Source: a virus (taxonomy: Duplodnaviria; Caudoviricetes). Taken from it: a stretch of DNA of 64,000 bases. The notes below the pieces were generated by a model. That model did not search any database and was not told the DNA's origin. It was given only the letters and a program-made list of their open reading frames with translations. The position numbers and the translations under genes are program-made. The stretch lies in IMG/VR virus record IMGVR_UViG_3300028832_000096. One strand, written 5' to 3'. Below, piece after piece: positions 10,631-33,662 of the stretch (the first letter of the stretch is position 1; every line of letters begins with the position of its first letter).

Positions 10631-10749
10631 GCCATTTATTCGACTAGGAGCAAAGAAATAAATGGCGAAAGACTTTACTCGAAAGTTCGCTTTATTTTCA
10701 CGGAGCGTAACTCATGGTTACATAATACACAGAGCGAACTTACAAGAGC
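10631..10749 (-). ncRNA. repeated structured RNA, copy 1 (long stem + 3' H-type pseudoknot)
   Basis: Homologous to 17812-17920 and 33528-33662, with compensatory changes. Confidence 0.7.
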
Positions 10750-10854
10750 TGTTGCTATTGGCACACGTATGCCTGAACCATGTGCCATAGAATATAACGA
10801 TTCAATTAGCGATAAAAGGCAGCTCTGTAATTAGTTAAGGTTTTGGCTGTATTT

Positions 10855-12453
10855 TCAAACCTCATATTTACATTTATTTGGGAACTTTTCTTCAAGCAAT
10901 TTAAGTAATTCTTCGCGTGTCTTTTTATAATCTTTCACTTTATCTGAGTCATTTAAACAAACTACCTGTAACATATCACTAAATAATGCCCTACGTATAT
11001 CCGTCATACTTTCGTGCATATCTATGTACATGTAACCACAGATGTCATTAACATAATTGTCTGTGTAATATTCATAATAAGGATAAATATATTGGTTCAG
11101 ATTCTTAGGCATTCTAAGCCTAGAAACGCTACGCTCTATCGCAGCTTTGCAAGCTTCACCGACAATTTCCGTTGTTGACTTACGCATAGGCATGATGCCA
11201 TGTTCAGGGCATATTAACTTACCAACAGGATACTTTTCTTTGTGGAAGGTGTTAGCAATTAAATCTAAACCATTTCGACAATGAACTCTATACAGGTTGT
11301 TAGTAGGATAGGACTCATGACGTAAGAAGTCGATATGCGGTTTACCATCAGTAAAAAAATCTCCAACAACTAATGGATTTATTGGAAACATATCATCGTT
11401 GAAGTACAAGAAATATTCTGATAGGTCAGGAATGTTATACAAGAAACATTCGATAGTGCAACTATTGAATGTAGGCAAAAACTGAGCAGGTATGAAGTCC
11501 CTATGGTAAACAATTTTAACATTTTCTTGATTAAGCCATTCAGGCGCTTGACTTTCACGAGCGAGGAGAAGTATTACATTTCGGACAAAAGGCATGTTGT
11601 CTGAAATACTTCTAAGTAAATATTTCAATGAACCCCAATCTCTAAATCTTACATTGCTTACTGTATAGATACCTGTAGTGGTTGTATAGTCCTTCATCCA
11701 CAATTTGTCTCTAGCATTTACATAAGGAATAACAACATCAATATCAGATATATCGCTACCTTCATAATGCTGTCGTTGTGTTGCTTTGATTAAAGCAGAA
11801 GTATATCTCCGCATGTAATTCCAGTTGTAAATTTGTTCTTTTGCCCAACTAGAAGGACATTGTCCAGGACCTACATACTTGAACGAAGTTTCAGTCACAC
11901 AGTCCTTTGGAAAATCAAACGCTTTATCTGGAAATTGCTGAAAACACATTGCAACAAACAAATCGTCTTCAAAGCCTTGACTGATTTCTGGATTCATGTC
12001 AGGCATATCAATTTGACTGTATATCTCCTTTGATACAGCAAGTAGCATCAAAGGGCATGCGGTATGTCGTATAACACCTATACCGCCAGGATGATTATCT
12101 ATTTCTGAAAGGTATATAGACGGGTCATCACACTGAATCATACCGTCATCATCTAGCATTATAAGATAATCATAATTTGATTTAATAAACTGTTTTCTAA
12201 GCTCTCTGCGTGCTCCTAGTATTCCGAGTTTATCATATCTTAGAATTTTCAGTTTGTTTTTAATTTCAGGTGGTTGATAGTCTTGCCAATTCTGAGCAAT
12301 TATTAGAATATCAACTTCCGGCCATAATTCCGAGAGCTTACATAGTAATTCGGAACATCTCCTACTTCTCTCACGACGTGTTTCAATATGATACTCAGTA
12401 TCATTGTTAGGGAAGTAAGATACAATTCCGAATACTTTCTTAAGTGATTGCAT
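10855..12453 (-). CDS. GT-A-like + Stealth (CpsY/SacB-like phosphotransferase) fusion, paralog 1
   Basis: N-terminal DYLIMLDDD; Stealth CR1 DIDVVIPYV, CR2 LKYLLRSI...FLPTFNSCTIE...YFNDDMF, CR4 VCLND. Confidence 0.85.
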   Translation of the reverse strand: MQSLKKVFGIVSYFPNNDTEYHIETRRERSRRCSELLCKLSELWPEVDILIIAQNWQDYQPPEIKNKLKILRYDKLGILGARRELRKQFIKSNYDYLIMLDDDGMIQCDDPSIYLSEIDNHPGGIGVIRHTACPLMLLAVSKEIYSQIDMPDMNPEISQGFEDDLFVAMCFQQFPDKAFDFPKDCVTETSFKYVGPGQCPSSWAKEQIYNWNYMRRYTSALIKATQRQHYEGSDISDIDVVIPYVNARDKLWMKDYTTTTGIYTVSNVRFRDWGSLKYLLRSISDNMPFVRNVILLLARESQAPEWLNQENVKIVYHRDFIPAQFLPTFNSCTIECFLYNIPDLSEYFLYFNDDMFPINPLVVGDFFTDGKPHIDFLRHESYPTNNLYRVHCRNGLDLIANTFHKEKYPVGKLICPEHGIMPMRKSTTEIVGEACKAAIERSVSRLRMPKNLNQYIYPYYEYYTDNYVNDICGYMYIDMHESMTDIRRALFSDMLQVVCLNDSDKVKDYKKTREELLKLLEEKFPNKCKYEV

Positions 12454-12478
12454 TGTTAACTAAGGAGTTCTCCTAGTG

Positions 12479-12835
12479 TTACTCCTCTTCCTCGGGATAA
12501 TCTTTAATTATCCATCTGAGAAGCTGAGTTGTGTCCTTATTGCAAAGCGGGCAGATGCCATTGATGCTATCAACTTCCTGCTCAGATGCAATCATAGCTG
12601 AAATGAAAATACCTTTGCAGTTATCGCATTCTGCGATAAGATGGTTTACAATATTGTTATCGACGTCAATAGCAACGTCATCTTCCTCAATATTTTCGCC
12701 CTCTTCAATAGCTTCCTCTTCTTCTACGTCTTCACCAATAGTTTCCTCAGGTGCATCCATTACGTCATCAAAGAGAGACTCGTCTTCTGAAAAGTCGTCA
12801 TCCGCAGCAAAAATAGGTCTTTTTGTAATCTTCAT
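12479..12835 (-). CDS. acidic zinc-finger protein with MK..IFAA leader
   Basis: D/E-rich N-half, CDNC...CPLC; motif-B promoter upstream. Confidence 0.65.
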   Translation of the reverse strand: MKITKRPIFAADDDFSEDESLFDDVMDAPEETIGEDVEEEEAIEEGENIEEDDVAIDVDNNIVNHLIAECDNCKGIFISAMIASEQEVDSINGICPLCNKDTTQLLRWIIKDYPEEEE

Positions 12836-12892
12836 TTGTTATGCCTCCATACATACTGAACCAATCAGTTAGGATAATTGTATAAAAGGTTA

Positions 12893-13816
12893 TCAAACTG
12901 CAACTACTCTATTGAAAATCTGATTAAGTGCTACAGAAAGAAGTGTAGTATTTACAAACATTGCGTCTGCTGTAGGCTTACGCTGACTTACATGATGAGT
13001 AAGATAATCGGCCGCACCGTTGATAACACCCCAAGCGGTTCCATTGAAGTTCTGATTGTCATCACTCTTGTAGCATGAAAGGAACTCCGCTCTGTTCATT
13101 TCAAAGTTAGTTACCTGACGATTAGTCATCTTCTCAGGGTCATACTTGAATACTTCGTTGAAAATCTTGATAATCTGGTCCTGAGAAATCTTCTTCTTAG
13201 CAAGCTCCTCGGCCGTATCTTCAAATGTAGACATATAAGTTGCTACATCATGCATCATGTTTCTTGCAGTAACAAGCCTTGTATCCATCTTAGACGAATG
13301 AACGATTCTTACTGTGTTAGATGCTTCTCTGAAAGCAAGGTTAAACTGATTCTGGCAAACAATTCTCAAAGGAGAAATTGTAGCTTTGACGGAATTCATA
13401 CCGTCATGAGAATTCTGGAATATGATATAAGGAGTGATAGCATCACCAAGAAGTGTGATATCAGGAATCTTAGCGATAATGTAAACAAGGCCTTTAGTGC
13501 TTCCATTAGAAATTTCGCCTGCTTTAACATACTGGAAACCTTCGTTGTCGTTTCCGATATAGTCGATAAAGTTGAAGGCGTCTCTATTCTGGCAGATTTC
13601 GTACTTAGATGAAACTGCGTTGTAAACAAAGCCAGTAGACTCATTAACAGTAAGAACCTTATCCGGATAGTCGTAATAAGTTTCACCGTCAGGTCCAAGA
13701 TACTTGATACCTTTCTTAATGACATTGTAATTCAGCCCTGCTGCATTGAGGACTTCTTCAGAAGTCTTGCAAGCTGAAATGTCGGTTCCGATTGATGCAA
13801 AAGTTGATGTACGCAT
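12893..13816 (-). CDS. DUF932 (phage/plasmid TIGR03299-like) protein
   Basis: AGLNYNV, VSSKYEICQN, NSHDG, RIVCQNQ, GTAWGVING; start moved to 13816 (GGAGG RBS) because the ORF-track ATG lies inside promoter motif A. Confidence 0.8.
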   Translation of the reverse strand: MRTSTFASIGTDISACKTSEEVLNAAGLNYNVIKKGIKYLGPDGETYYDYPDKVLTVNESTGFVYNAVSSKYEICQNRDAFNFIDYIGNDNEGFQYVKAGEISNGSTKGLVYIIAKIPDITLLGDAITPYIIFQNSHDGMNSVKATISPLRIVCQNQFNLAFREASNTVRIVHSSKMDTRLVTARNMMHDVATYMSTFEDTAEELAKKKISQDQIIKIFNEVFKYDPEKMTNRQVTNFEMNRAEFLSCYKSDDNQNFNGTAWGVINGAADYLTHHVSQRKPTADAMFVNTTLLSVALNQIFNRVVAV

Positions 13817-13881
13817 ATTGATGCCTCCTTTAGATGAGTGTATTTTTCTTCTACATCGTACATAACGATTCAAATGATACT

Positions 13882-13907
13882 AAAAATAAAAGAGGCCTAG
13901 TGGCCTC
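13882..13907 (-). terminator. intrinsic terminator
   Basis: GAGGCC/GGCCTC stem + T-rich tail on minus. Confidence 0.6.
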
Positions 13908-14057
13908 CTTTAATATAAATACATACATAATTATTGCTGAGGTTCAGCCGGTTTTTCTTTGATACATCTGCCTAATACACAAGTATGACGATACAAATCT
14001 TTTGTTATTTTTTCGCTATAATGATACTGGCATTTCTTGCAGTCATCTGTGAATAAT

Positions 14058-14327
14058 TTATTGTTCATAGAATGTGTTGAATTCACTAGTAACCGCACCA
14101 TCTTTCATTGCTGCTTGATAGATTTCGCAACCATCTTCTTCTGCGATATAAGCAGCTAAGAATGTATCTAAATCATTTGCTTTAGTATGTAAAGTTGTTT
14201 TATGGGCTTCCCAGTAAGAGTTTAACCAATCACCGGAAACTACAAAATTGACTTCTCCAATAGGGTCATCGGAATCTTTGGTATAAATCCACATTCTATT
14301 TAATTCATACTCAAATTTGACAGTCAT
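14058..14327 (-). CDS. hypothetical protein
   Basis: AGGAG RBS. Confidence 0.6.
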   Translation of the reverse strand: MTVKFEYELNRMWIYTKDSDDPIGEVNFVVSGDWLNSYWEAHKTTLHTKANDLDTFLAAYIAEEDGCEIYQAAMKDGAVTSEFNTFYEQ

Positions 14328-14341
14328 AGAAATCTCCTGTA

Positions 14342-14785
14342 TTAGGCTTCATCAGATTTAACTGAAACATCGTCTGCTATTTCTTCGGGCTCACTTGCAG
14401 GTTCTGGTTTACGAGATACTAATATGTGGGCGGCTGTAAGAAGATAAGCACAATACATATTGATATCAAATGTGTTTCCAGGTTTAATAGATGCAAACAG
14501 CATCTTAGCAGCATTTGTTGTCATTTCTCCTAAAGTCATTCCATTAGGAATTTTTACATCTTCAGGAATACCGAGGATAGTATCAACTAAATCTACTTCA
14601 GCATAACTGCAAGCGTAGATTACAGAATGATAAAGAGAAATGACATCTCCGTTATTTTGAAAGTTTGCAAGTTCAATCATCGCACGACGGCCAGATGCTT
14701 TCTGCTCGTTGCTAATGAAATTGCCCTCATCGTCTTTGATTGCATCAGGCATGTAAGGAATGAGCATGTCGTAAAAAAGTTCCAT
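14342..14785 (-). CDS. hypothetical protein
   Basis: AGGAGG RBS. Confidence 0.65.
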   Translation of the reverse strand: MELFYDMLIPYMPDAIKDDEGNFISNEQKASGRRAMIELANFQNNGDVISLYHSVIYACSYAEVDLVDTILGIPEDVKIPNGMTLGEMTTNAAKMLFASIKPGNTFDINMYCAYLLTAAHILVSRKPEPASEPEEIADDVSVKSDEA

Positions 14786-14808
14786 AGTGTCCTCCTATTT
14801 ATTAAATA

Positions 14809-16638
14809 TTATTTAGTGTTTCCAAACAAAATCTCAAATAATTCAGGATTATTCTTAAATGACAATTTATTATCGACTATATACTTTGCAATTCCGTCTT
14901 TGTCCTGAATTAATTTATATACTTTCTCATCTACGGTATCTTTAGTAATGATGCTGTAGATGTTTACAGTACTATTAGTACCTGCCCTATGACATCTGTC
15001 TTCTGCTTGCTCCATCGTGGCAGGGTTCCAAGGTAAGTCGTAGAATATTACATTATTTGCAACAGTAAGTGTATGTGATACTCCTAATGCTCCGATAGTA
15101 CCTATCATGATTTTGCGCTCAGGGTCTTGTATAAACTGGTGTTTCTGCTCTTCTCTATCATTTGTATTAACACCAGTATAACAACAAATGTTCTTATGAT
15201 ACAAAGCAAGAAAGCGATAAATAGTCCTGAGCGACTCAACCCAGTTAGAAAATATTACAACTTTCTCACCGCTCGAAACAATTGTATCTACTAAGTCCAG
15301 CAATCTTGTCATTTTAGAGTTCTTAGTTAGATATGCTCTATCAATTTTAAGAGATGTATCAACTAATTCGGGACTTCCATTTACTTGGCGAAGTTTCAAT
15401 AACCGAACCATAGGATTAACTGCGGTCAATATTTCTTCTCTATGCGCTTTAGTATCAGCTAATACTTCTTCATAGAGTTTTGCTTGATAAGTAGTATTTT
15501 CAACATATTCAATTGTATGTATTTTAGGCGGAAGGTCTAATACATCTTTCTTCAATCGTCTTAGCATATTATTCTGCAAGAGATGTTTAAGTTGCGGGAT
15601 ATTCTTATACGCAATTATATCGTGATTACCGAAACCGCCATATACACAGAAATTCTGACACCACAACTGATAATTGTTAAATGTATGACCATCTACAAGT
15701 TTAAGCGGAGTAAATACATCTGTAGGTTTGTTTACAATAGGTGTGCCGGTCATAGGTAACCAAAGAATCTTAGACCCTTCAGTATCCTTTTTCAACTTAA
15801 GTACTTGACGGCCTTGTTTAGAAGAGGGAGAAATTCCTCTATGACATTCATCTAAAATAACCATCCCGATATAACCTTTGTTGAAAAGTTTTGTAAGCTG
15901 CTCTCTAAACAGATAATGTCTGTCTTTGCGCATGTGTAAAACTTCAACATTTGTTACTAAAAAGAAAGGAAGCGGTGGTTGGTCCTTCTTTCCATACATA
16001 TGGCCACAAATCAAATCATCTAACTTCTCTTTACTGCCACCATCATATCTTACAGTTCCATCACGCTTCAGGCGAGAACCTAAAAGATAAGGTACTTCTT
16101 GTCCATTAGAATGTTTCTTGATGTCCTCTATCCAGTTAAATTTAGCTGAGTTTACACAAGCAATAATTAAACAGTGTTTTATTTTATTAACTTTGCGATT
16201 ATACAATGCAAGATTCATCGCTTGCAAGGTCTTTCCAAGACCAGGTTCATCTGCAAGTATGAACCCGCTAAACAGACCTCTATTCTGTCTATCGATAGAA
16301 TACCGCATAAAATCAAGCTGATGATTAAATAAATGATAACCATCTTGAACACTTAGCGGTACTTTAGATAAATCAATATTAGGAATTGCAGATTCTGGTG
16401 TAGCATCAATATTAGCGTTTTGATTTATATGCTCAGCAGAATAAACTTGAAGTTGATTTTCATATTGCGAACCACGCAGTTGTGAAATTAAGAAACCTAA
16501 TCTGTCAAGTGGAATAGTCCAATACTTATTATCGTTATCCCATCTACGACCCGGAACGCTTTTTATAATATAAAGCAATTGCGGGTTATATGGAAATCTA
16601 ATAATATAGACATCTTGATTTTGTACTGCAGTTATCAT
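14809..16638 (-). CDS. SNF2/SWI2-family helicase (HARP-like N-terminus)
   Basis: LADEPGLGKT, LDECH, MTGTPIVN, MLRRLK, KVVIFS, WNPATMEQAEDRCHRAG. Confidence 0.93.
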   Translation of the reverse strand: MITAVQNQDVYIIRFPYNPQLLYIIKSVPGRRWDNDNKYWTIPLDRLGFLISQLRGSQYENQLQVYSAEHINQNANIDATPESAIPNIDLSKVPLSVQDGYHLFNHQLDFMRYSIDRQNRGLFSGFILADEPGLGKTLQAMNLALYNRKVNKIKHCLIIACVNSAKFNWIEDIKKHSNGQEVPYLLGSRLKRDGTVRYDGGSKEKLDDLICGHMYGKKDQPPLPFFLVTNVEVLHMRKDRHYLFREQLTKLFNKGYIGMVILDECHRGISPSSKQGRQVLKLKKDTEGSKILWLPMTGTPIVNKPTDVFTPLKLVDGHTFNNYQLWCQNFCVYGGFGNHDIIAYKNIPQLKHLLQNNMLRRLKKDVLDLPPKIHTIEYVENTTYQAKLYEEVLADTKAHREEILTAVNPMVRLLKLRQVNGSPELVDTSLKIDRAYLTKNSKMTRLLDLVDTIVSSGEKVVIFSNWVESLRTIYRFLALYHKNICCYTGVNTNDREEQKHQFIQDPERKIMIGTIGALGVSHTLTVANNVIFYDLPWNPATMEQAEDRCHRAGTNSTVNIYSIITKDTVDEKVYKLIQDKDGIAKYIVDNKLSFKNNPELFEILFGNTK

Positions 16639-16744
16639 TAATTACACCTTGTACTACCTTGAGATTTAAGCGAGATTTAATTTTTGCTAATTTACTACAT
16701 AAAGTATAGTAAATCTATAATAGCGCCTTAGCTCGCCTAAGTTA

Positions 16745-17398
16745 TCACCAAACGAAGCTATGGTTAAATTCTTCGCCATTATCAATGATGATATCTTGTG
16801 CTGTGCAGCTCTTATTTATTACTGCGAGGAAATAAATCCAATCGGCTGCTTCATCTGAAGTAGCCCATTTATGCAATGGCGTCATACTCATTATCTTATT
16901 CCATTTCTTAGTGTCATTAATTACATTCCAGTTAACAGGAGATAAAACACCGCCAAAACTTAAACTATTGCAAGTAGCGCCATACTTAGCAATTTCTTTC
17001 GCTGTGTATTTTGTATAAGCAATTACGCCACCTTTGCTTGCTACATACTCACCAAAATCTGCACCTGTTGTTCCAGAAGCAGCTGCTTGATTAACTACTG
17101 ATTTAATATCTTTGTTATTGAGTGCATACTTTTCAGTACAGTTGATTAGACCTCTAAGGTTTACATCAATATCAGTTTCCGTACCTTGCACACCTGCATT
17201 GTTGATTAATATATTTACTTCTTTAATATCAGGGAGTTCGTCTTTCTTGGAAACATCAGCAACTACATGCGTATAGTTATCATCAATGATGTTAGACGGA
17301 GCTACATCAATTCCGATAACTACATGACCCTCTGATAAAAACTTAATAGCAGTTTCTCTGCCCATTCCGCGAGATGTGCCGGTTATTACTACGTTCAT
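16745..17398 (-). CDS. short-chain dehydrogenase/reductase
   Basis: TGTSRGMG, NNAG, YVASK. Confidence 0.9.
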   Translation of the reverse strand: MNVVITGTSRGMGRETAIKFLSEGHVVIGIDVAPSNIIDDNYTHVVADVSKKDELPDIKEVNILINNAGVQGTETDIDVNLRGLINCTEKYALNNKDIKSVVNQAAASGTTGADFGEYVASKGGVIAYTKYTAKEIAKYGATCNSLSFGGVLSPVNWNVINDTKKWNKIMSMTPLHKWATSDEAADWIYFLAVINKSCTAQDIIIDNGEEFNHSFVW

Positions 17399-17408
17399 AA
17401 GTAACTCC

Positions 17409-17702
17409 TTAGTTAGGTAAAATCAATTTTGATTTCTTGAGGAGGGCCTGGTGAACAAGTCCTTCTAATCTCCTTAATGCTTCTGCATCATAATCTTGAA
17501 GCGCAACTGCAATCTTATCATTAGTTTCAGGCAAACAGAGGCACTTACATCCATTGTCCTGACAATAACTAATTAAATCTTGCAATGCGTCTGATGTCAT
17601 ATCAGGGTCTTTTGTTGAATCATATGTAACGAAGATAAATTCACCTTCCTCACACTTGATTAGTTTCTTCAATACGTCGTTGTTGATTTCTTGTATTTCC
17701 AT
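17409..17702 (-). CDS. hypothetical protein
   Basis: AAGGAG RBS. Confidence 0.6.
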   Translation of the reverse strand: MEIQEINNDVLKKLIKCEEGEFIFVTYDSTKDPDMTSDALQDLISYCQDNGCKCLCLPETNDKIAVALQDYDAEALRRLEGLVHQALLKKSKLILPN

Positions 17703-17729
17703 AAGTAACTCCTTATAGTAAATCTATTT

Positions 17730-17803
17730 TGGCTGAGGTACGTGGAGTCGAACCACGATTCACAGAGTCAAAGTCTGCTGTACTACCGTTATACGATACC
17801 TCA
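17730..17803 (-). tRNA. tRNA-Gln(UUG)
   Basis: UGAGGUA/UACCUCA acceptor, anticodon loop CUUUGAC, UUCGACU T-loop, encoded CCA. Confidence 0.95.
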
Positions 17804-17811
17804 GTATATGA

Positions 17812-17920
17812 CTACTTATTCGACAAGGGATACAGAATAAGTAGACGAAGACTGTATCCGAAAGTTCGCTTGAGGTTTTCTCGGAGCACATACCGGAAAT
17901 TACAGAGCGAGCTTACAAGA
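17812..17920 (-). ncRNA. repeated structured RNA, copy 2
   Basis: Same architecture as copies 1 and 3; outer pseudoknot helix covaries (CTACTTATTC/GAATAAGTAG). Confidence 0.7.
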
Positions 17921-18154
17921 CCTGCATGTCTGAAACTCTCCCAACAAGGAGTTACACCTTGTAAGCGTTTGCCTGGGAGATATATAAATTGCCTTTTGAA
18001 ACAAGATAGGGTGGTGGTTGTCTTTCGTAATTGTTCCTTGCGAAACTATCTTGTAACTTTAACCGGCAGCTCAATAGAATATTCATGAAAGGCGAGAAGA
18101 GCTTCGGAGGGCAACTATTCACTTGTAAAGGTTCAGATACATTACATAACGATT

Positions 18155-19744
18155 CTAATTTTCATACTTGCATTTTTCAGGAAATTTAGTTTCAAATATA
18201 GAAACCAATTCTCGCTGAACTGTATCATAATCGGCTACTGTTCCCATATCATTTATACAAACAATGCAAATATGTTTGCTATTTAATATTATATGACGAA
18301 TATTAAATAAGTTGTCATCAATTTCAGTATACACATAAGGGCAAAAATCATCAATGTAGTTACCTGTGAAGAATTGATAGTAATGATAGACATACTGATT
18401 GATGTTTTGCGGTGCTCTAGTTTGTGTTATGCTCTTTTCCAATACATCCTTTAGGGACTTGAATACATTCTTTACGCTAGATTTTAACATAGGCATAGCG
18501 CTGTGTTCAGTAACTATCAATTCGTTTTCATCATAATTAGGTAAATTGAGCATTGTTGTAATTGCGTTTATACTAGACCGACATTCCCAACTAAATGCAT
18601 CTTGTGATTCTAAATTACTATGCTCTTTAAATTGCAATAAGGGCTTTTCATCTACAAAGAAGTCAGACGATACCATATCATCTATCGGAAAAATATCATC
18701 ATTGAAATATATAAATTTCTCTGATAGTCCTTTGATATTAGATAAGAATGCTTCTATTGTGCAGCTATTGTATGTAGGTAGAAATTTTTCTGGTATGAAG
18801 TCTTTGTGGTAAACTATTGTAACATTAGTAATCCATTCAGGTACTTGGGTTTCATCTGAAACGATTAGTACAACATTGCGTACAAAAGGCATATATCTAT
18901 CTATACCTCTTAATAAATACTTCAGCGTGTTCCATGACCTAAATCTGTTAGAATATAATTCTGATTGTTTAGTATTTTTGATATATGCTTCTTGCCATCC
19001 AGATTTAGACGAATCTACATAAGGAATTACAATGTCGATGTCTTTCTCGTTGCTACAAGGAGCTCTTTTGTGTTTAACAGCTTGAATATATGCATTAGAT
19101 ATACAGTTCATATAGTTCCAATCAAGCTGAATATCATCTAACCAAGTAGAAGGACAACTATGATTTGGTTTATAAGAAAGGTCTGAAATACAGCCTTTAG
19201 TGAAGTCAAATGCTTTATTAGGAAATAACGCAAAACAAGATTCGGCAAATACTACATCGCCAAATCCTTCGCATTTTTCTGCATCAATATCTGGATAATC
19301 GATTAGGCTATAAATAGATTTAGAAATAGCTAAAAACGTCATAGGATGTCCTATGCGACGAACTAATCCAACCCCATCAGGGTGGTTATCAATTTCTTTA
19401 ATATAAACCGAGGGGTCTTTGCATGATATAACAGTATCGTCATCTAACATAATTAGATAATCGTATTCTGATTCTAAGAACTCCTGCCTGAGTACTTTTC
19501 TTGCACCTACTATACCAAGCCGTTTTATCTTAGAATTAACTATGCGAAGTTTGTTTTGTATTTTTGGAGGTTTATAATCTTCCCAATTCTGTGCAATTAT
19601 AATGATGTCGATAGTAGGCCATAAACTGCTCAAAGATAAAAGCAATTCGGAACATCTCTTTGTCCTTACACCTCTAACATACTTATGGTAATCAGTATCT
19701 GGGTCTGGAAAATAAGAGATTATTCCGAATACTTTCTTAATCAT
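18155..19744 (-). CDS. GT-A-like + Stealth fusion, paralog 2
   Basis: KKVFGIISYFP, DYLIMLDDD, DIDIVIPYV, FLPTYNSCTIE, YFNDDIF, VCIND; colinear with 10855-12453. Confidence 0.85.
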   Translation of the reverse strand: MIKKVFGIISYFPDPDTDYHKYVRGVRTKRCSELLLSLSSLWPTIDIIIIAQNWEDYKPPKIQNKLRIVNSKIKRLGIVGARKVLRQEFLESEYDYLIMLDDDTVISCKDPSVYIKEIDNHPDGVGLVRRIGHPMTFLAISKSIYSLIDYPDIDAEKCEGFGDVVFAESCFALFPNKAFDFTKGCISDLSYKPNHSCPSTWLDDIQLDWNYMNCISNAYIQAVKHKRAPCSNEKDIDIVIPYVDSSKSGWQEAYIKNTKQSELYSNRFRSWNTLKYLLRGIDRYMPFVRNVVLIVSDETQVPEWITNVTIVYHKDFIPEKFLPTYNSCTIEAFLSNIKGLSEKFIYFNDDIFPIDDMVSSDFFVDEKPLLQFKEHSNLESQDAFSWECRSSINAITTMLNLPNYDENELIVTEHSAMPMLKSSVKNVFKSLKDVLEKSITQTRAPQNINQYVYHYYQFFTGNYIDDFCPYVYTEIDDNLFNIRHIILNSKHICIVCINDMGTVADYDTVQRELVSIFETKFPEKCKYEN

Positions 19745-19931
19745 TCCTTGGAACTATTTCAAGTCCTTCTATAGCTGCCCATAATTTAGCAGCGGATTCT
19801 TCAGATAAATCTACAATAATAGATGTAGCAGTCACAAAATCAGATTCTGTAGTAAAAGGTTTCCAAGTTTTGCCATCATCGCTAGAATAAAATAAATTGC
19901 TGTTGGATTCGTCATTATCTTTGGGATTCAT
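19737..19931 (-). CDS. hypothetical protein
   Basis: GGAGGT RBS; one YSSDDGKTW (Asp-box-like) motif. Confidence 0.5.
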   Translation of the reverse strand: MNPKDNDESNSNLFYSSDDGKTWKPFTTESDFVTATSIIVDLSEESAAKLWAAIEGLEIVPRND

Positions 19932-19960
19932 ACTAGCACCTCCGATGCATACAATAACGA

Positions 19961-23622: not shown

Positions 23623-24054
23623 TCATTTATTATATCGAGCTTTAAGTTGGGTTATAGGAGTATTTAAGTCATCAAGGTTCTTATATATGCAATCCATTAA
23701 ATCTAATGCTAATAATTCTATGATGTATTCATCATAAATATCCCTTGACTGTAATCTGAATACTGGCAGACCTATATCTTCCTGAAAGAGGTTCGGGTCG
23801 CCTGTATCAAAACAGAGATTCCAATGAAATTCGTGATTCATACAAAAATGCAAAAACTTATAAACAGTTTCTAATTTATCAAACTTTAACCATATATGGC
23901 AGTGGCTCTTACCATGACCACAACAACTTTCGGTAGTTTCAACGCCTTCGATAGCGTTTAATGCCACACACAAATCCCTAATCGGGTAATCAATTTCCCA
24001 ATATGGGATATTTTCAGGACACATACTATCATCAAAATTTCTTATCATATACAT
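23623..24054 (-). CDS. hypothetical protein with TTESCCGH motif
   Basis: LNAIEGVETTESCCGHG (TYW3-like motif; tentative). Confidence 0.5.
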   Translation of the reverse strand: MYMIRNFDDSMCPENIPYWEIDYPIRDLCVALNAIEGVETTESCCGHGKSHCHIWLKFDKLETVYKFLHFCMNHEFHWNLCFDTGDPNLFQEDIGLPVFRLQSRDIYDEYIIELLALDLMDCIYKNLDDLNTPITQLKARYNK

Positions 24055-27000
24055 ATCTCCCTATTATTTAATCATTTTTTCTTTGTTCTTCCTGATATTC
24101 AACTCTATGACTTGTGCAAGTCATACCATAATGATTAAGAGGACAGTCCTCACACTTTTCTGTTGGACACGGAGACTGCATTAAATTTAAATTTCTTACA
24201 TCTAACATTATTCTTTATCTCTTTTATGTAATTCATCGTGAATAGCCTTGTAGGGTGATATTGTCGGAGCATTGTTGATAATGTCTTTTACGGCTTCACA
24301 ATCAAAAACCGCAAATTCATTGTATTCGTCTAATTCTTTTAACAAAGCACTACGGCTAATTAAATCATCTGTTGAGTTGTAAGGTATGCCGTTGGCGATA
24401 ACTTTATCTATTTGACTTGGATAAAGTTCTTTTACCGCGTCTTTACAAGCCTCATAGTATTTCTCGTCAACTTCGATTATCAACTTAATTTTCTTTATCA
24501 TTCTCATTCCGTATCACCTTTTCTTCCTTAAACGCAAACACCACATCAAACCCTGCCCAATCATGCATCCATTTAGACATCTCTTGCATTGTCGCTAACA
24601 CTTCCGTTGAAGATAGACCACGGCACCCATAGCCTACGGCACGACTATCTTCTGTGGTAATGCTATAATATAGACTATCTACTACTGTAATATCGAATAC
24701 AACAGGTCTTTCACTATCTGGCATATCAACCCACCTCACAATCTATCTCATTAAAAATCGGGATATATTAATCTCGGATTGATTTCGCTGCTATTGACAA
24801 GCATATAGGTCATTCCACAATGCTTACAGGTCATAGTACCCTTGTCAATTACACCACCGCAAGATTTGCACTGAAGAGCTATGATTGTCTGGCTCGGCAT
24901 ATTTGAAAAATCTGCGTGAATAGTACCTGAAGTAGTTATTACGGAATTCAAAGGGTAGCCAGAATCTTTTATAAGAAGTTCTGAAGGGTCTGCACAAGAT
25001 ACAAGTGGCTGTTCTAAAGCAATCTCCATAGCTTCCTTAAATGCCTTGGCAGATTCTTCAGTAGTAGATGCTGTTAATGCAAAAACATCTTTTAGCTGAT
25101 TAACATCGATTAAATCTAACATATCAATCTACCTCACTTCATATCATCAATATAGTAATAATAGTCATAAAACTTATTGTTATATTTCACCCAATCTTTC
25201 TTTGACTGATATAACTTAACATCTGTTCCTAATTTCTTGCTGAAATAATTAAGAAGGTACTCAATAGGCTTTTTGAAAAACGGCGAATTAGGGTCACTTA
25301 TAACAATTTCTACTCTATCTTCGTCACCATCATCTAAATATCCGTCATAACTCTCCGCCCAAATAAATTTGCCCATTTTTTTAGTTATATTAAAAAGCAA
25401 ATCATCAAGTTCATCAGTCCATATAAGGTCAAGTACAACAACCCTTGTGTCATAATTAAGTCTGATTGCTTCCTTATATTTTAGATTAGTCATATCACTC
25501 TACCTCACTTTCATCATCAGCCACTACTTCACCATCAATAATACAATCTGCTATATTTACTCCATAAGGCAAGTGCCCTCTCTGAACAGTAAAGTTGTAA
25601 ACTTCATCGGGTATTTCAATTATCAATTTCATAAGTTATTCTCTCCTTTTGGATTCTTGATATGTTGTACTTCACTTATTATAACGATTCTGATTTTAGT
25701 ATAAGTTTAGTCATCTTCAGAATCCCTTATACAATGTAATCCTTCTTGGCAAGTATCAGTCTTATGAGGACATTCATAGCACCGACCATGTTCATTGGAA
25801 GATGCTGATATATAAATATCAAACTTCGGCGGAGTATAATCTGTATCAGGTTCAGCCTTCCCTAAATCTAATGAAATATCAGCTATATTGGTCATGAGTA
25901 AATTTTGTTGACGTTCGGATAATTTCAAAAATCTCTGCACGTCAAGGCATTTGCTCATCAAAAGGACAGTTTCTTCTAACAGTTTAATTCTTTCGGAGTT
26001 TGTCATTTGACGTCTCCTTTCATATTAGATAAACAAGTACCTGCGAAAAAGCAGTAGTGTTTTAATTCAGGATTTACTTCGCCTTGATTGATGTGGTAAA
26101 ACTTGCACTTCTTGCATTCTTCGTTATCCATTAGTTTTGCCAATTCGACGCAATTATCCATATCAGCTATTGGACCTCTTTTTAATGACATTTAGCAAAT
26201 CATCCAATTTTTCTTTTGATATTCTTTTATCTACCCATAAGCCTTCCCTATATCCGGTCTTTTCAGCTGCCTCATCATAAAGGATAAAATCAAGAGAATA
26301 CTTCCCATCTTCCTTATAGATTTTAATGTTTGCTATTTCATCCATATTATTCTGTATCACCTCTCATATCTGTATTGTTATATACAGGAATACCTAAAAC
26401 TTTCATTTGATATACAAAACAATATTCCATCTTACAGTTTGGAAAAATACACTCCGATACTTCATCACTATTTTCAAAATGACCATTCATAACACACTTT
26501 GTTTTGCTCATTCCGTACCTCTTCTGCTATCTTTAATTAAAAAATCCAACCCACAACAAAGCAACAATTCAGCATTTGCCTTATCATAATTACCTATCTT
26601 GTATGCTTTACGACAAACAGAATAAGGTAATTTATATTTGTAGTGGAGTTCTCCGATATCATTATTTCGCTTACTCATTTGGTGTCACCTCATATCTACA
26701 CCGCAGTAACTGAAAAAATTTTCACCGATTTCGCCACATTTCGCCTGTCATGCTTTTCAGCCTTGCCGTTTCATTTGCCATATCTGAATATAAAAGACTT
26801 AATCTTTCGTTTTCTTTCAAAGCCTTTATTGCAAGGTCAAGAGCTTCATATTCTCGTCTATCAGTTAAAGTAACATTCATATCCTCAACTTCGTGTAAGG
26901 TGATTACCCGTTCAAGCCACTCGATTGCTTCTTCGTTAGTCATTATCTGAACCTCGCATATCTGCTCCGCAGTTTTTACAAAAGTCTGTAAAATCTAAAC

Positions 27001-28558
27001 CAATTATTTCTCCTAATGGTGTTGTCCTAAGCGACCTCTTATGACAAACAGAACACTCTCCTGAATGATGCCACTGACCTTTTGGTTTTTGTGGTTCATA
27101 CTCATAGCATTCAAAATCATCAAGAAATGCAGCACCTGTTTTAATGTCGTGGCACACATCACCGTGAATACAAGTATCACACTTCATTTTAAACTCCATA
27201 GATATGCGGTATGCATTTTTCAAAATATTCTTCACAAGTATATTCATCAATGATTTCTTTTGTGATAATTCTTTCATGAGAACCATTATATTTCACAAAC
27301 CAGCGAATAGATACAACAACATCTGTTTTTGCTAATTCAAATGCTTGCTTAATATCATCCAACTTAGGCGTATTATCTATCCAAAACGATTTAATTTCAT
27401 TCATTTTGTATCTCCTGCATCACCTGTCTCCATCTTCAAGAAACTTTAAAAAGTTCTCTCTGTTTCCAAAAATGGTATAGATTACATAATCAGCACAAAT
27501 CTTAATAGCCCTTTGCGCTTCGGGCGTTAATGAATTCTTATTGCAGTTATCTTTGCAGTCTTTCCCGTGAAATAACAGGTTCTCAAAATAATGTTCTTCG
27601 TTGCTCATTTCGTACCTCCTCTTATGTTTGTTTTGTTATCTGCATAATATGGTAATTCTTGTAATTGCTGTGTTTGATTATCGTACACCAAAGTGTAACT
27701 GTGAGAGTTTCTTCCACAATTATTACAATGCCAATGTTGACCGCTTGTATCAAAATATTCATTAACTATTGGTGAGTCACAACGAGGACACCTAAATATC
27801 ATTTCGTATCACCTCTCATATCTGTTCTTTTGAAAATTCCATTGGAGGATACTTATCGCAATCGTGAAAATAAGCAAAACTATCATAGGTTTTTGTCGAA
27901 TGTGTAGCGTGCCTTTCACAATCAGTATTAGGACATTTACTATATGCGCAGAATGTTATATCTTCACTCATTTATTATCACCTTGCTCAAACCACTTTGA
28001 AAGACTTTTCCTACACTCATTACATAAATCGAGTTTTACATCACCATAAGGGTGCATATCTTTCCAAAGAACAAATCGCCACCAATTCTCTTTATAATCA
28101 GAGTCATCGAGGAAAGTAATTTCATATAACTTCCCACACCTATCGCATTGTTTAGCACTTCCCATTTTCATCACCTCGCATATCCGCCCCGCAGTTCGGG
28201 CAGTAATTCCGCTTATCATGAATACTTTTCAAACTAAACCCACACTTGTTACAACCCCATACCATACGAGGGGTTTCTTCATCATCAAATAGTTCTTCTC
28301 TCTGAACCCACTCGCCTTTCGGCCTTTCTACGCCTAGCATTCGAGCAGTATCAAACAACTTCTTGCTTGACTGATATAATTCTTCTCTCTTTCGTTCAAT
28401 TTCTTCATCAACGGCTACTGTCGGTGCATTGTCGATTATTGCTAATATAGTTCCGCAACAATTCCATTTTGCAATATCAATATCACAATTTTTATTCCAT
28501 TGTATCTGATACTGTTCTATTTCCTTTTTCAAAGCGCTACGGCTGATTAAATCGTTGT

Positions 28559-28942
28559 TCATTCCGCACCGCCTTTCCAGTCTGAATAATCATCTAAATA
28601 ACGGGTTACAATCTCCTTGAACTCATAATTCGATAGGTGTTTGGAACAATGTCTTTTCTCAAACAACTCTTTTGTTTCTGTTACATAAACCTCAAAAATA
28701 CCGTTTTCTTCATAATATATAAAGTACAAAGGTAAATTCTTCTCTATGGCTGTAGCTCTACATTCAGTGATGAATGGTTTTTCCATTTCATTAGCTGCCG
28801 GGGCAGTATCGATAATATCTAATACTTCTTCCGTAGGAATAGTTTTTCTGCCCTTGCTATACGGGTGATAGTATTTCTCTCTGACAAAAAACTGTTCTAT
28901 CGCCTCTTTCATATACTTACGGCTGATTAAATCGTTGTTCAT
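28559..28942 (-). CDS. cassette protein, paralog of 22414-22821
   Basis: Near-identical C-terminal ~60 aa. Confidence 0.7.
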   Translation of the reverse strand: MNNDLISRKYMKEAIEQFFVREKYYHPYSKGRKTIPTEEVLDIIDTAPAANEMEKPFITECRATAIEKNLPLYFIYYEENGIFEVYVTETKELFEKRHCSKHLSNYEFKEIVTRYLDDYSDWKGGAE

Positions 28943-29638
28943 TCCGCACCGCCTTTCTGCTCTTATGCGATATGAAAATTAAAGTGTTCTACTATTTTCT
29001 CAACACATTCATTACATATATCAAGAGTCCCACGATATTTTCTGCTACTTTTCAATTCAACAGTTACAAATTGTGAATATCCATCTTCGTCATAACAGTC
29101 CCTAATGTTTATTTCCTTTTTACAAATATCACAAGTAATTTTTCTCATTATCCCACACCACCTTTCATCATCTTTGCACCGCAGTTAGGGCAATAATCAC
29201 TTAAATGTTCATAGTATTCGTAATCGTATTCATTATAATCAGCTTCGTGATGACACAAAGAACAATGATGTTCACCATAATTATTGCTTATCCACTCACC
29301 TTGCGGTCTTGAATAATTGGCTTTTCCATCAATTATTGCTTGTCTATAACCTTCTTTGAAATCAGGTAAAGGTACTGTCGGGGCGTTGTCGATAGCATTT
29401 AGAATTGCATTATCAAGTTCTGTGCCACTATAAACTAATATCAGTTGCGATATATGCTCTTTCAAATCGTCTAAATCACCTAACCTCATTCTGTTTTACC
29501 TCTACTCTATCCTTTAATGCTTGCATAGCGATTTCCAAGGCCTCAATATAGTGCTTATCAAAATCGAGCCGTTTCATAAGTGTTTTAACAGGACTTAAAT
29601 ATCGGAGTGCTTGCTTATCTGTCATTCCTTATCACCTC

Positions 29639-30139
29639 TCATACGTCCATTTTCGCTCCGCAGTTAGGACAAAAATTAAAATGAGTTGCACCGTTCCAAA
29701 AACCACAAATAGTACACTTAAACATGTCGATTGTGATGCTGTGTTCTTCGTCTTTTATCCACTTGCCTTGTGGTCTTGACGTAGCTATTCCATCTGACAG
29801 CCCATTAAAATAAGCGGTTCTATAAGGGAAATATTCACTTCCACTTATATCAACTGTCGGGGCATTGTCGATAACAAGCCCTAACATTTGCATACTAATT
29901 GAATAGTCAATTTGATGTTCTATACAAAACTCTTTTGTATATTGAACACTATCAATTTGTTCTTTCAAGGCTGCACGGTTGATAAGGTCGCTTGTAGTTT
30001 TTTCATAAGGCTTGCCGTTGCGTATTGCATTAATTACATTACTTTGTATTGTTTTGGTGTTACCTCTAAAACCGCCAACAAACGTCAAGTCTTTTATAAA
30101 CTCCAAGTCTTTTTCAGGAATATCAATTACAAGTTTCAT
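29639..30139 (-). CDS. three-module cassette protein (MKLVIDIP + DLINR..IDNAPTV + Zn ribbon)
   Basis: All three recurrent modules in one ORF. Confidence 0.7.
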   Translation of the reverse strand: MKLVIDIPEKDLEFIKDLTFVGGFRGNTKTIQSNVINAIRNGKPYEKTTSDLINRAALKEQIDSVQYTKEFCIEHQIDYSISMQMLGLVIDNAPTVDISGSEYFPYRTAYFNGLSDGIATSRPQGKWIKDEEHSITIDMFKCTICGFWNGATHFNFCPNCGAKMDV

Positions 30140-31961
30140 TCCATATCACTCCTTATATCAATCTGCCTCGGCCCTTGTATTGTAATTAGTGCCTATAAGC
30201 ACTTCAGGATTAGCGTCTTTATAAGTAAAAAGTTCAACGGAATCTCTTGTTGCATAATACCCACTAACATACATATCAGTATTATGTAGTATTACCTTTG
30301 CATTCTGAGGCATATCCTGAAGTATCTCAATTAAATCGGCTACAGACAGCCATTGGTTCTTTTTCATAAAGCCATCTCCTTTATTAAGGCATAATCCATC
30401 TGTATCGGTTTATTACATATCGGACATAGCCGGTTGTTATACCAATCGGCACAGCCTTCAGTCGGCTCAGAACAAGGTATTCGAGTTAAGGGGTTAAATC
30501 CTAATCGGCAGGAAGTAAATGCCCAATGTGAATTACATGTGCCGGGTCGGTATATCCACTTACAATAATCTGACATAATTAGTGCTCCTTATCAGCTGCA
30601 AGTACAACAGGTATCTCATCTCTGATATTCTCATATAATTTATAACGAATCCAACATCCGCTATCCCACTTCTGAAAATTAGTATCAGTTTCAAAGGCTG
30701 CGTGATACATCTTGCTATCTAATAAATCTCCATCTACCAGCTTACCATGTCCTTTTGGAAGAACAGTACCAGATTCTACTGCCTTGCGGAAAAATAAATC
30801 TTCAGAATTAGCATAATCTCCAGCATCATTTGATGCATGGGACATAATCCAGTTATATCTACCTTCCTCTATATCAATTACTATTTTCATAATTATTACT
30901 CCTTATCTGCTGGGATTATTACAGGTGCGGCATCTACACGAAATCTGCTTATAACTCCAAAATCACAATTTTGACAGGTAAAATCATACTCTGGCGGACA
31001 ATCTTTAACATTATTAGGGCATCTATAGTATGCTAATTTACTGCGGTCAATTAAATCTCCGTGGCCTTTAGGTATAATTGTCGCAGTTTGAAATGCTTCT
31101 GTTATGACTTGGTCTAACTTATCATGTTGAATAGCATACAAACCACCATGATATATAGCGTTGAAATCATCTGCTGGAAGTTCAATTACTATCTTCATTC
31201 TTATATTACCTCTTATAATATTAGTGCTATTCTACAACGAATGTTGTCTATTTTAAGTAATTCAGGTGTATTGCAAGGTATTCCAACCCATAATCTGCGA
31301 GCTTGTTTATAACAGCCTATTGCGAATTTTCCGGCTATATCTTTATCACCTTCAGATATTGTAACTTGGCACCAAGGAACAGTGAAAACTCCTGCGGGTG
31401 CTCGAGACCTTCTTATAGGGACATAATATCCTTTAGCATTCTTAATTACTTCAAGCCAATTATCGCCCATTTTTAGCTACCTCAATCTCACCCATAAGAA
31501 TTAGAGATTTTATGCCGTGACCATATTTTCTATATTTTTCTATTTCGTCTTCACGAATTAAGAAAGTACCTTTGCCAACATCTAAATAAGTATCTGTTTC
31601 TTCACACCAAACTGTATCGTGCATGCAATTTGTGTATTGCACGAATTCTATCGCATATACTTTCATCCTCATTTGGAATCTCCTTTCATGTAAGCGCCGC
31701 ACTGGTCGCAATAATGACGACTAAACCAATAGTTCTTTTGCGGAATTGTTGATGAAAACAGATAAGTTTCGCAATGACAATTAGAACATTCGCAACCAAA
31801 ATGGTCAGGATACTTATTTTCTATCCAATGACCTTGATGTTTTTCTAGTGTTGCTATTGCAAGGTCTATGGCTATTTTACGCTGTTCATCAAACCATTCA
31901 TCACCGCCACTGATATATTTCTCTTTTATCGCTTGTAGCCACTTTGCTGCTTCTGAGTTAG

Positions 31962-32891
31962 TCATGATACAGGCCTCCTAATGAAATGACCGCATTCTGT
32001 ATCATATGTATAGCCTAGATTGAATTTAATTACAGCGCTAATGATTTCATCTAATGACTGTCTTCCGAGGTTGCGAATATTTGTAAATGGCTTATCATAG
32101 TTGACGATATCATGCAATGTGTTCAACTGGCTTCTCTTCAAGCAGTTATACGTCCTGATAGAGAAATCCATATCCTCAACAATGATGTCTGAAAGAGCTA
32201 CACGTTTTACAGGTTCAGGTGTAGGCTTAAGTAATCTAACAGCTTCAAGTCCCGCAGCATACTGCTTGAGCTGCTCGTTTTCTTCCTTGAGCTGCTCGAT
32301 AGTAGTTTTTGATGCAAACAACTCTTTCAATGCAAAATGAACTTTGCGAAGAGCTTTAAATTCAATCTGTCTTACTCTTTCTCGTGTAAGTCCTAATTTC
32401 TTACCAGCTTCCTCAAGTGTAAGGCTATCTCTATAACGCATTTCGACTACAGCCTGCTCACGGTAATTAAGTCGGTCTCTGAATATTCTATCGAATTCAA
32501 AAGGAGTAACATTGCGATAACTCATATCGAATTCGTCGTCATTGTTAATGTCTTCAAAGTACGACATAATAGCTACACCTGCAAGGCTGTAGTTTACAGT
32601 AGCGATTATGAAATTGTAGGGAAAAATATCTTCGAGTGTCTGAGTGTGGTCAACCATCAATCTTGCAGCGACCACATTAGAGCAAATCTTTTCAAACTTT
32701 GCACTAAAAAGCTTTTCAAGAGCCTTCTGAGCCTTAGGGTCAGGCAAACTAACTAACTGAAGCCATTTCTGAATTGCTGCTTCTGACATTCCAAGAAGTG
32801 CAGCAAAATCTCTATATGTGAGATTATTATTCTTGCAATAAAGCCTGATATTGTTGGCCAGACACTCTTTCTGTTCTTCGGGTTTATACAT
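31962..32891 (-). CDS. XRE-HTH + sigma70 region 4 + RNAP alpha-CTD fusion regulator
   Basis: LTYRDFAALLGMSEAAIQKW (HTH); LNYREQAVVEMRY..TLEEAGKKLGLTRERVRQIEFKALRK (sigma4); DMDFSIRTYNCLKRSQLNTL..IRNLGRQSLDEI (alphaCTD). Confidence 0.88.
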   Translation of the reverse strand: MYKPEEQKECLANNIRLYCKNNNLTYRDFAALLGMSEAAIQKWLQLVSLPDPKAQKALEKLFSAKFEKICSNVVAARLMVDHTQTLEDIFPYNFIIATVNYSLAGVAIMSYFEDINNDDEFDMSYRNVTPFEFDRIFRDRLNYREQAVVEMRYRDSLTLEEAGKKLGLTRERVRQIEFKALRKVHFALKELFASKTTIEQLKEENEQLKQYAAGLEAVRLLKPTPEPVKRVALSDIIVEDMDFSIRTYNCLKRSQLNTLHDIVNYDKPFTNIRNLGRQSLDEIISAVIKFNLGYTYDTECGHFIRRPVS

Positions 32892-33095
32892 ATAGTAACT
32901 CCTCCTTTGCTTTGTGCAATATTGATGCTATGTTTACTATAACGATTTTAATTAGAAGTATCTGTTACTGAGGTTTCTGTAAGCTTATCTGCAAGGATAG
33001 TATGACATCTTGTTAACATGCCGTTAGTAACTAGAAGGAAAACTATAATTATAACTAGAATTAAAATGATTGAACCAGAATCAAACTTTGCCATA

Positions 33096-33317
33096 TTATT
33101 TCTGCCACCAACGCTTTTTCTTTGCTTTTTCAGCTTCTTCGCGTTGCTTGAGCAATTTATCCTGCTCGGCAAAGTAGGTTTGATAATAATCAAAGTTTGC
33201 AATGATATCGTCAAGTTCATTAGAGGTAAGCCCTACAGATTGTCTAATCTGGACATAATTATTTACACCGCTTGCAAATAATTTACTAACAGATTCAAAT
33301 TGATGCTTTGAGACCAT
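33096..33317 (-). CDS. hypothetical protein
   Basis: GAGG RBS; basic C-terminus KKKRWWQK. Confidence 0.55.
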   Translation of the reverse strand: MVSKHQFESVSKLFASGVNNYVQIRQSVGLTSNELDDIIANFDYYQTYFAEQDKLLKQREEAEKAKKKRWWQK

Positions 33318-33318
33318 A

Positions 33319-33504
33319 TCAATATCCTCTATCTGACGGACTAAATAAATTGTAATATTCCGGAGGTAAATTTCCTTTATTATCCGGTACGCCTAATTCA
33401 CGAGCACATTTACTGCATACTAAAGGCATTTCATCATATTCCATATTGCACCTAGTGCATTTGTATGTATGATTCTTTGTATATTTGAATCTAACTTTTG
33501 TCAT
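33319..33504 (-). CDS. small zinc-finger protein
   Basis: Start re-set to MTKVRF at 33504 (AGGAGGT RBS); CTRC...CSKC. Confidence 0.6.
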   Translation of the reverse strand: MTKVRFKYTKNHTYKCTRCNMEYDEMPLVCSKCARELGVPDNKGNLPPEYYNLFSPSDRGY

Positions 33505-33527
33505 AGCCCACCTCCTAGATAAAAGAA

Positions 33528-33662
33528 GCCATTTATTCGATATAGGATACAGAATAAATGGCGAAAGACTGTATCCGAAGGTTCGCTTATTTTGAAAGGA
33601 GCGGTTATAGGGAATGGAAAGAAACAAGACCCATAACCACTGTCGAGCAAGCCTACAAGAGC
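33528..33662 (-). ncRNA. repeated structured RNA, copy 3
   Basis: GCCATTTATTC/GAATAAATGGC and GGATACAG/CTGTATCC pseudoknot; inner hairpin fully paired with G-U only on minus. Confidence 0.7.

Follow-up and report, generated by a model that had tools for sequence, protein, structure and literature searches.

Which RNA is repeated in this phage, and what could it be doing there? We analysed a stretch of 64,000 nucleotides (nt) of phage DNA (IMG/VR record IMGVR_UViG_3300028832_000096, Caudoviricetes), called the window below, in which a structured RNA motif lies dispersed in three copies, all on the minus strand. A preliminary description of the sequence had taken it for an RNA with one covarying pseudoknot. 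The three copies are present at the places it gave and the covarying pseudoknot is there, but it is one of two, since helix P1 had been overlooked and a 5' knot with it. Our results showed that the element, here called the double-knot RNA, is about 120-140 bases long and consists of two H-type pseudoknots in series, P1/P2 and P4/P5, joined by an invariant UC and read on the tRNA strand. We regard this fold as close to certain. Twenty-one distinct copies, the three of the window and 18 more, were collected, all from related uncultured phages of about 175-200 kb.

Fold of the double-knot RNA

The 5' part of the RNA is made of P1a (4-7 nt, ending in G), the loop NNCUU, GU, P2a (ARGYUYGCU) and P1b. 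Then come a variable hairpin (P3), which lies within the long loop of the P1/P2 knot, a C-rich linker, an invariant A, P2b (AGCGAACYU) and the UC. The 3' part runs through P4a (8 nt), the loop U(C/A)UUU, P5a, 1-5 nt and P4b, and closes with an 8-nt loop ending in CGA and with P5b, which begins A(U/G)AAA. P4 and P5 are the two helices proposed before (as P2 and P3), and the compensatory changes described for them were confirmed. The 5' starts of the window copies were moved 4 nt further 5', to 10753, 17926 and 33666, because P1 closes the conserved 5' segment and thereby makes the second pseudoknot. GCUCC and an A-run, which had been written into the consensus, belong to the variable linker and are not invariant.

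Over 29 pairs, 96.2% of the cells were paired, and both-sided changes were observed in 17 of the 29 (P1, 4/4; P2, 1/10; P4, 7/8; P5, 5/7). None of 500 shuffles reached the observed pairing, and slid partners paired at 41-48%. RNAalifold independently found P2 and P4 and added a G-C pair that would set P2 flush on P4. Minimum-free-energy (MFE) folds prefer the P5 hairpin. When P1, P4 and P5 of 18 copies were read on the minus strand, 15 G-U pairs stood against a single A-C, which rules out the plus-strand reading. The minus strand had been favoured from the start, on G-U evidence that looked mixed; the apparent plus-strand signal proved to be one C.A column in P2, conserved in 16 of 18 copies.

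A covariance model of 18 copies, run without filters, gave the window copies 105-119 bits and nothing else in the window more than 14.5 bits. This gap excludes chance and fixes the number of window copies at exactly three. Homologues from other phages scored 93-122 bits. Thirty-five of 82 core positions are invariant, among them two unpaired elements, the CGA of L3b and the A before P2b. A constant CCA end was also considered; it is present in only 3 of 18 copies and is thus not a rule.

Probable base triples between loops and stems

In an H-type pseudoknot, loop 1 lies in the major groove of stem 2, parallel to the 3' strand of that stem. We applied this register to the 3' knot, and the U-rich loop came to lie along the purine strand. 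U.A-U can form at positions 1, 3 and 4 in all 21 copies. At position 5 the loop U changes only where the A of the strand changes, giving C.G-C in window copy 2 and C.C-G in one of two tandem copies (L044b). At position 2 a loop A is seen only against G-C (9/13 versus 0/8). Clean covariation of a whole triple amounts to one event. A similar placement is possible in the 5' knot, where CUU may run beside the GAA of P2b; these three purines are invariant, whereas the bases paired with them in Watson-Crick fashion vary.

This pattern suggests that the U-rich loop of the 3' knot forms a major-groove triple helix with the second stem. By the same conservation, both knots would hold their pyrimidine loop in the major groove of stem 2, forming a triple helix, and all four helices would be stacked in a single rigid rod. 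The loop-to-stem correlation implies that P4 and P5 coexist. Helices and triples together account for most of the invariant bases.

Distribution of the family

The copies outside the window were reached by several routes. A helicase-linked contig, which is a complete 200-kb genome (L024), has two copies, one on each side of tRNA-Gln. A pattern scan of metagenomes yielded 13 further copies. Three others came from contigs fetched through a neighbouring 97-amino-acid protein, with no DNA pattern used, and their invariant bases are identical; the invariance is thus not an artefact of the search pattern. Genes or RNA-cluster DNA of the window recur in most carrier contigs, and two (L040 and L063) have in common with it only the motif, or the motif and a tRNA.

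Exact-pattern scans, which would miss diverged relatives, found one true carrier contig in IMG/VR, the other matches being chance, and 8 matches in GTDB genomes, all by chance. In blastn against 50,697 GenBank phages no similar DNA was found, only tRNA-Tyr and noise at E = 6. A covariance-model and Rfam check had been proposed as the test of novelty, and no Rfam family matched the motif. At the gathering threshold, Rfam 15 recognised only tRNAs in the window, 13 loci and two short stretches. Over the whole window it gave four tRNAs and nothing else, and at E up to 5-10 nothing credible lay over the motif, only chance matches. Our literature searches did not find the motif described, in a comparison that leaves outside it the candidate list of Fremin et al. 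2023, whose candidate viral structured RNAs came from IMG/VR (PMC10690425). On these searches the RNA appears to be uncatalogued: its kind is known, as structured RNAs in phage tRNA clusters, and its architecture was not found described.

The element is missing from a complete 175-kb relative and from a 98-kb fragment whose tRNA cluster was read. It is accessory, occurring in 0-3 copies beside varying neighbours, and its distribution is narrow, within one uncultured phage family. Core similarity among the three window copies is 76-79%, and copies 1 and 3 are more similar to copies at the same sites in other phages, so that the grouping is by site and not by genome. This rules out a recent duplication within the window genome and indicates old paralogues, shuffled as tRNA genes are.

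Genomic context and ends of the RNA

All copies lie on the sense strand in intergenic DNA. Their contexts had been noted as different, and they are varied, yet not simply so. In 11 of 21 copies, including all three reached through the protein, the 5' end of tRNA-Gln, -Pro, -Leu, -Met or -Ile lies 5-11 nt past P5 (15-20 nt from the start of P5b), and three copies (window copy 1, L049 and L071) have the same cell-wall hydrolase directly downstream; the rest are mixed, and no downstream gene or expression platform is common to the copies. The leaders of the abutted tRNAs end in AY, as do nearly all tRNA leaders in these phages whether or not the element is present, and in this they resemble ordinary RNase P substrates.

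At least 5 U in 8 nt directly follow P5 in 10 of the 10 other copies, in 3 of 8 tested copies that abut a tRNA and in 9.5% of the intergenic background, a comparison confounded by the GC-rich start of tRNAs and by the relatedness of the copies. On the 5' side, five copies start 28-71 nt after a tRNA CCA and two start 26-49 nt after a phage promoter-like motif. Two copies (L053 and L113) lie between two tRNAs, the L024 copies flank a single tRNA and those of L044 form a tandem pair, settings in which there is no gene to regulate. The suspicion that the RNA is unlikely to be a gene-specific riboswitch was borne out by L053 and L044.

Neighbouring genes were searched for a partner. No homing endonuclease or toxin was found among them, and neither Pfam nor PADLOC gave a toxin hit. 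The Stealth genes were considered as well, since copies 1 and 2 both follow Stealth paralogues, yet relatives have Stealth genes without the RNA.

Proposed role of the double-knot RNA

We tentatively favour the reading, the simplest to cover every context, that this is a discrete, nuclease-resistant RNA cut from phage tRNA transcripts, which binds a protein in trans; taken whole, it is a good possibility rather than a probability. Its first part, a discrete processed RNA, is somewhat probable. Granted that part, a protein-binding decoy would be a guess, though a fairly likely one. The double-knot RNA would then be a movable module in and around the tRNA and non-coding RNA cluster of large gut phages. 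As the context suggests, it would be transcribed together with its neighbours from phage promoters. The 3' end would be made by the RNase P cut of the next tRNA, 5-11 nt past P5, or, where no tRNA follows, by termination or trimming at the U-rich tail, leaving 5-11 nt after P5 in both cases, and the 5' end would come from the promoter or from 3' processing of an upstream tRNA. The triple-helical knots may then stall exonucleases. The released RNA would bind a protein in trans, perhaps as a decoy for a host nuclease or an anti-phage protein. Neither a seed-like conserved single strand nor a ribozyme core was found in the copies; a decoy seems the most likely role because there is no conserved seed and the conserved surface is rigid, and it would fit an accessory element whose copy number and neighbours vary. 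A discrete unit is further supported by an unrelated RNA unit of the same cluster, which also abuts different tRNAs in different phages.

Two known RNAs illustrate how such knots could protect an end. In the MALAT1 ENE/mascRNA system, a U.A-U triplex stands at a 3' end produced by the RNase P cut of an adjacent tRNA-like element (PMC8457004). MALAT1 is a eukaryotic long non-coding RNA in which a U-rich internal loop grips an A-rich tail and no H-type knot is present, and the likeness is one of analogy, not homology. RydC (RF00505) folds as an H-type pseudoknot with a U-rich 3' tail behind the second stem, a layout shared by the 3' knot and seen in all ten copies without a following tRNA; RydC depends on this fold for its stability in vivo (PMC4337610). 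It is an Hfq-dependent RNA of enterobacteria, with a single knot and a seed at its 5' end, whereas the double-knot RNA has a second knot, lacks a conserved seed and is found in phage tRNA surroundings. The RydC family gave no Rfam match to it, and its 5' region is a second pseudoknot, not a seed.

Several observations weigh against a processed, trans-acting RNA, besides the confounded U comparison. The U-tails are interrupted, and a terminator scan does not call them. The invariance of 35 of 82 core positions would equally come from a catalytic or ligand-binding site. The triples are backed by one clean covarying event in the 3' knot and by invariance alone in the 5' knot. No co-occurring partner protein was found among the neighbours. 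No promoter-like motif lies between the RNA and the hydrolase in the window, L049 or L071, and in the window and L049 such a motif lies 26-49 nt upstream of the hydrolase-linked copies. Expression of the hydrolase would thus need read-through of the RNA, which fits a role in cis.

The strongest rival is a cis-acting element, which we consider unlikely. It would cap or roadblock its own transcript, against RNase J at the 5' end and PNPase or RNase R at the 3' end, or it would set read-through; in the attenuation version, P5 and the U-tail would terminate transcription unless P4 forms first, tuned by the 5' knot or a bound factor. The invariable sense-strand, intergenic position and the place upstream of the hydrolase, kept in three phages with no promoter-like motif between, agree with it. 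So does the preference of MFE folds for the P5 hairpin followed by a U-tail, and RydC makes a strong terminator hairpin when helix 1 is disrupted (PMC4337610). Where a copy lies between two tRNAs, or has a weak U-tail before a tRNA, however, there is little to attenuate or protect, the coexistence of P4 and P5 implied by the loop-to-stem correlation does not suit a switch between them, and the 5' knot is conserved as much as the 3' knot, beyond what a plain roadblock needs. Rather less weight goes to a self-cleaving ribozyme of a new structural class, with serial instead of nested knots, that would cut phage tRNA and non-coding RNA polycistrons. Small, multi-copy, context-independent, tRNA-associated, sometimes tandem elements of gut phages are its usual habitat, and the unpaired invariant CGA and A, and the C.A pair of P2, which could hold a protonated adenine, would suit a catalytic core. 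The natural comparison is with theta ribozymes, small multi-copy structured RNAs beside phage tRNAs of many types, which have a nested double pseudoknot and a catalytic C and cut within 5 nt of a tRNA 3' end (PMC10879173). The knots of the present RNA are serial and lie mostly 5' of tRNAs. Its nearest copies start 28-71 nt after a tRNA, and with 15-20 nt on the other side the spacing to tRNA ends varies and is too loose for a theta-like job. No nested HDV-like P1-P2-P3-P1.1-P4 with a C in J4/2 was found on either strand of the three copies, with a descriptor that had no positive control. Core patterns of the hammerhead, twister, twister-sister, pistol and glmS ribozymes were missing from both strands, the sole core-like match being a plus-strand pistol-like 7-mer flanking copy 3, and Rfam gave no ribozyme match at E up to 5-10. 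The ordinary RNase P leaders of the abutted tRNAs, and the share of invariant bases explained by helices and triples, also speak against cleavage by the RNA itself.

Three further ideas are improbable, in slowly decreasing order. A trans riboregulator could present the C-rich linker before P2b, held on a stable scaffold, as an anti-Shine-Dalgarno-like strand that masks a ribosome-binding site or mimics the 16S tail, in the manner of RydC. In every copy, 4-8 nt of the linker match the 3' tail of 16S RNA (5.6 on average, against 4.1-4.2 for shuffled sequences, with 0.35% of shuffled targets as good), in a test that was picked after the data had been seen and on copies that are related. Whereas conservation in a riboregulator normally peaks at the seed, the linker belongs to the least conserved stretches of this RNA, and in some copies a portion of it is paired in P3. 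An RNA of the put/EAR kind would bind RNA polymerase in cis and allow read-through of downstream terminators in long phage operons. EAR-type RNAs contain a pseudoknot, the copies are dispersed on the sense strand, and the two that follow a promoter-like motif by 26-49 nt would be well placed. Most copies, on the other hand, are found between tRNAs or towards the end of the tRNA cluster and not near promoters, they are followed by U-tails of their own, and the element is missing from relatives of equal gene order. Least probable is a small-molecule aptamer, which would work as a riboswitch-like sensor or soak up a nucleotide signal. In the SAM-II, preQ1 and guanidine-III riboswitches the pocket is made by an H-type knot with a triple helix, and the place upstream of the hydrolase is kept in three phages. 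Rfam gave no riboswitch match, though, a common downstream gene or expression platform is lacking, and in the 3' knot no position of the third strand is left without an RNA partner.

Other phage and bacterial RNAs resemble the element in part. In T4, RNA C and RNA D finish with a tRNA-like arm bearing CCA. The double-knot RNA differs in having no T-arm and no constant CCA and in being multi-copy and double-pseudoknotted. It resembles these RNAs (rnaC, rnaD), which are small orphan transcripts of a phage tRNA region (PMC3014915), in its setting, and they offer a precedent for such an RNA. ROOL and GOLLD, phage RNAs of unknown function with several pseudoknots, occur close to tRNA islands (10.1101/2024.12.08.627333); they are several times longer (GOLLD often exceeds 800 nt), and neither matches the double-knot RNA in Rfam. 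Type III antitoxins (ToxI, CptI, TenpI) are H-type pseudoknots that inhibit a bound protein and provide a model for a decoy; ToxI uses loop-stem triplexes (PMC4627078). Their tandem repeats, put at 36-45 nt or more broadly at 34-57 nt, are followed by a terminator and a ToxN, CptN or TenpN gene (PMC4627078). Dispersed units of 120-140 nt, with no toxin hit among the neighbours in Pfam or PADLOC, do not fit this pattern. CptI combines a one-base L1 with an A-rich loop making an A-minor twist, and the double-knot RNA is the opposite, with a U-rich L1 of 5-7 nt and an L3 that is not A-rich.

The double-knot RNA makes up a new and compact family, and covariation in 21 copies pins down its entire secondary structure, probable triples included. 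Since natural covariation fixes the structure, the RNA is ready at once for probing and for cleavage, nuclease and structural assays. If the processing model is true, it would be a bacterial-virus counterpart of MALAT1, combining an RNase P cut with a triple-helix end, and could serve as an RNA-stabilising module for Bacillota; if it self-cleaves, it would be a new ribozyme class. Either way it offers a handle on the role of the non-tRNA RNAs in phage tRNA clusters.

Copies in the window

Copy 1 occupies 10631-10753 (all features in this section are on the minus strand, and the three copies were located by sequence and covariance model). Its 5' knot consists of P1 (10749-10753/10728-10732) and P2 (10733-10741/10683-10691), its 3' knot of P4 (10673-10680/10648-10655), L1b (10668-10672) and P5 (10658-10666/10631-10639). 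A U-rich tail at 10621-10630 (7 U in 8) gives it a terminator-like 3' end, 44 nt upstream of the start of the cell-wall hydrolase at 10577. On the 5' side, a variable hairpin is seen at 10755-10790, which the family does not conserve. A RATCGTTAT motif at 10794-10802, about 49 nt upstream of the copy, sits just past the stop of the first glycosyltransferase-Stealth gene; its intergenic place on the coding strand suggests a promoter.

Copy 2 (17811-17926) has P1 at 17922-17926/17901-17905 and P2 at 17906-17914/17862-17870, then P4 at 17852-17859/17828-17835, L1b at 17847-17851 and P5 at 17837-17845/17811-17819. L1b is UCUUC here, with the change of U.A-U to C.G-C. Seven nt downstream lies tRNA-Gln(UUG) (17730-17803), which has an ordinary RNase P leader ending in AC and an encoded CCA. 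The bases past this tRNA (17718-17729) resemble the P5b end of the L024 copy at the equivalent place and are possibly the remnant of a lost fourth copy. A promoter-like motif (18146-18154) follows the second Stealth gene, about 228 nt upstream of this copy.

Copy 3 (33528-33666) closes a 2.5-kb RNA cluster poor in open reading frames (ORFs). It is built of P1 (33662-33666/33641-33645), P2 (33646-33654/33579-33587), the variable hairpin P3 with the linker (33589-33640), P4 (33569-33576/33545-33552), L1b (33564-33568) and P5 (33554-33562/33528-33536). Its U-rich tail at 33518-33527 has 6 U in 8 and is followed by AGGAGG and a 61-amino-acid ORF. The tRNA-Tyr(GUA) at 33705-33791, with encoded CCA, ends 38 nt upstream of copy 3 and is the final tRNA of the phage cluster.

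Neighbouring genes and RNAs

The window carries genes of a large phage: SNF2 and UvrD helicases, SbcC, a sigma/alpha C-terminal domain (CTD) regulator, the cell-wall hydrolase and two glycosyltransferase-Stealth genes. The protein cluster containing one window protein includes a contig of 193,604 bases. The nearest cultured helicase, 35% identical, is that of Clostridium phage phiCTP1, and this match and the AGGAGG sites point to a Bacillota host. The relatives presumably come from the rumen, as their sample accessions suggest.

RATCGTTAT is found at window 1233, 9067, 9823, 10802, 13870, 18154, 19962, 25689, 32947, 37696, 46236 and other positions, intergenic and on the coding strand, and in all relatives too. 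It is likely a phage-specific promoter. A 309-amino-acid protein (31962-32891, minus strand), conserved in relatives, has a helix-turn-helix, sigma-70 region 4 and an RNA polymerase alpha-CTD and is a candidate phage transcription factor for these sites.

The Stealth paralogues (10855-12453 and 18155-19744, minus strand; glycosyltransferase-like/Stealth_CR2) are 48% identical. Relatives also carry GT2 and UDP-glucose dehydrogenase genes, and together these genes suggest phage glycan synthesis.

The ORF-poor cluster of structured RNAs (33794-36264, minus strand) surrounds three tRNAs. Large blocks of it are 80-90% conserved in L024, L052 and L067, and its Rfam matches are tRNAs only. Within it, at about 33794-33870 and also in L067, L109, L113 and L066, lies a second conserved RNA unit, a hairpin with a CUGAUAA loop followed by another hairpin; it is unrelated to the double knot and abuts tRNA-Tyr or tRNA-Leu depending on the phage. 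Another conserved RNA (about 33895-34052; L024 7992-8357) is 86% identical to L024 over 370 nt and has no Rfam hit. Short stretches in it (GGAAAGU, GUAACAGUC) resemble words of RNase P RNA, which is a lead only. Twin tRNA-like scaffolds (34528-34634 and 34850-34966) have identical acceptor and T arms (28 and 18 nt), differ in their middles and have no anticodon.

Three genes of relatives were also recorded. L114 encodes a PolyA_pol/HD protein (8598-9980, plus strand), a probable CCA-adding enzyme. The SNF2 helicase of L024 (10001-12712, plus strand) contains an intein carrying an HNH nuclease, and that of L117 (5184-8256, plus strand) is split by an intein-like segment with a DUF559 gene.

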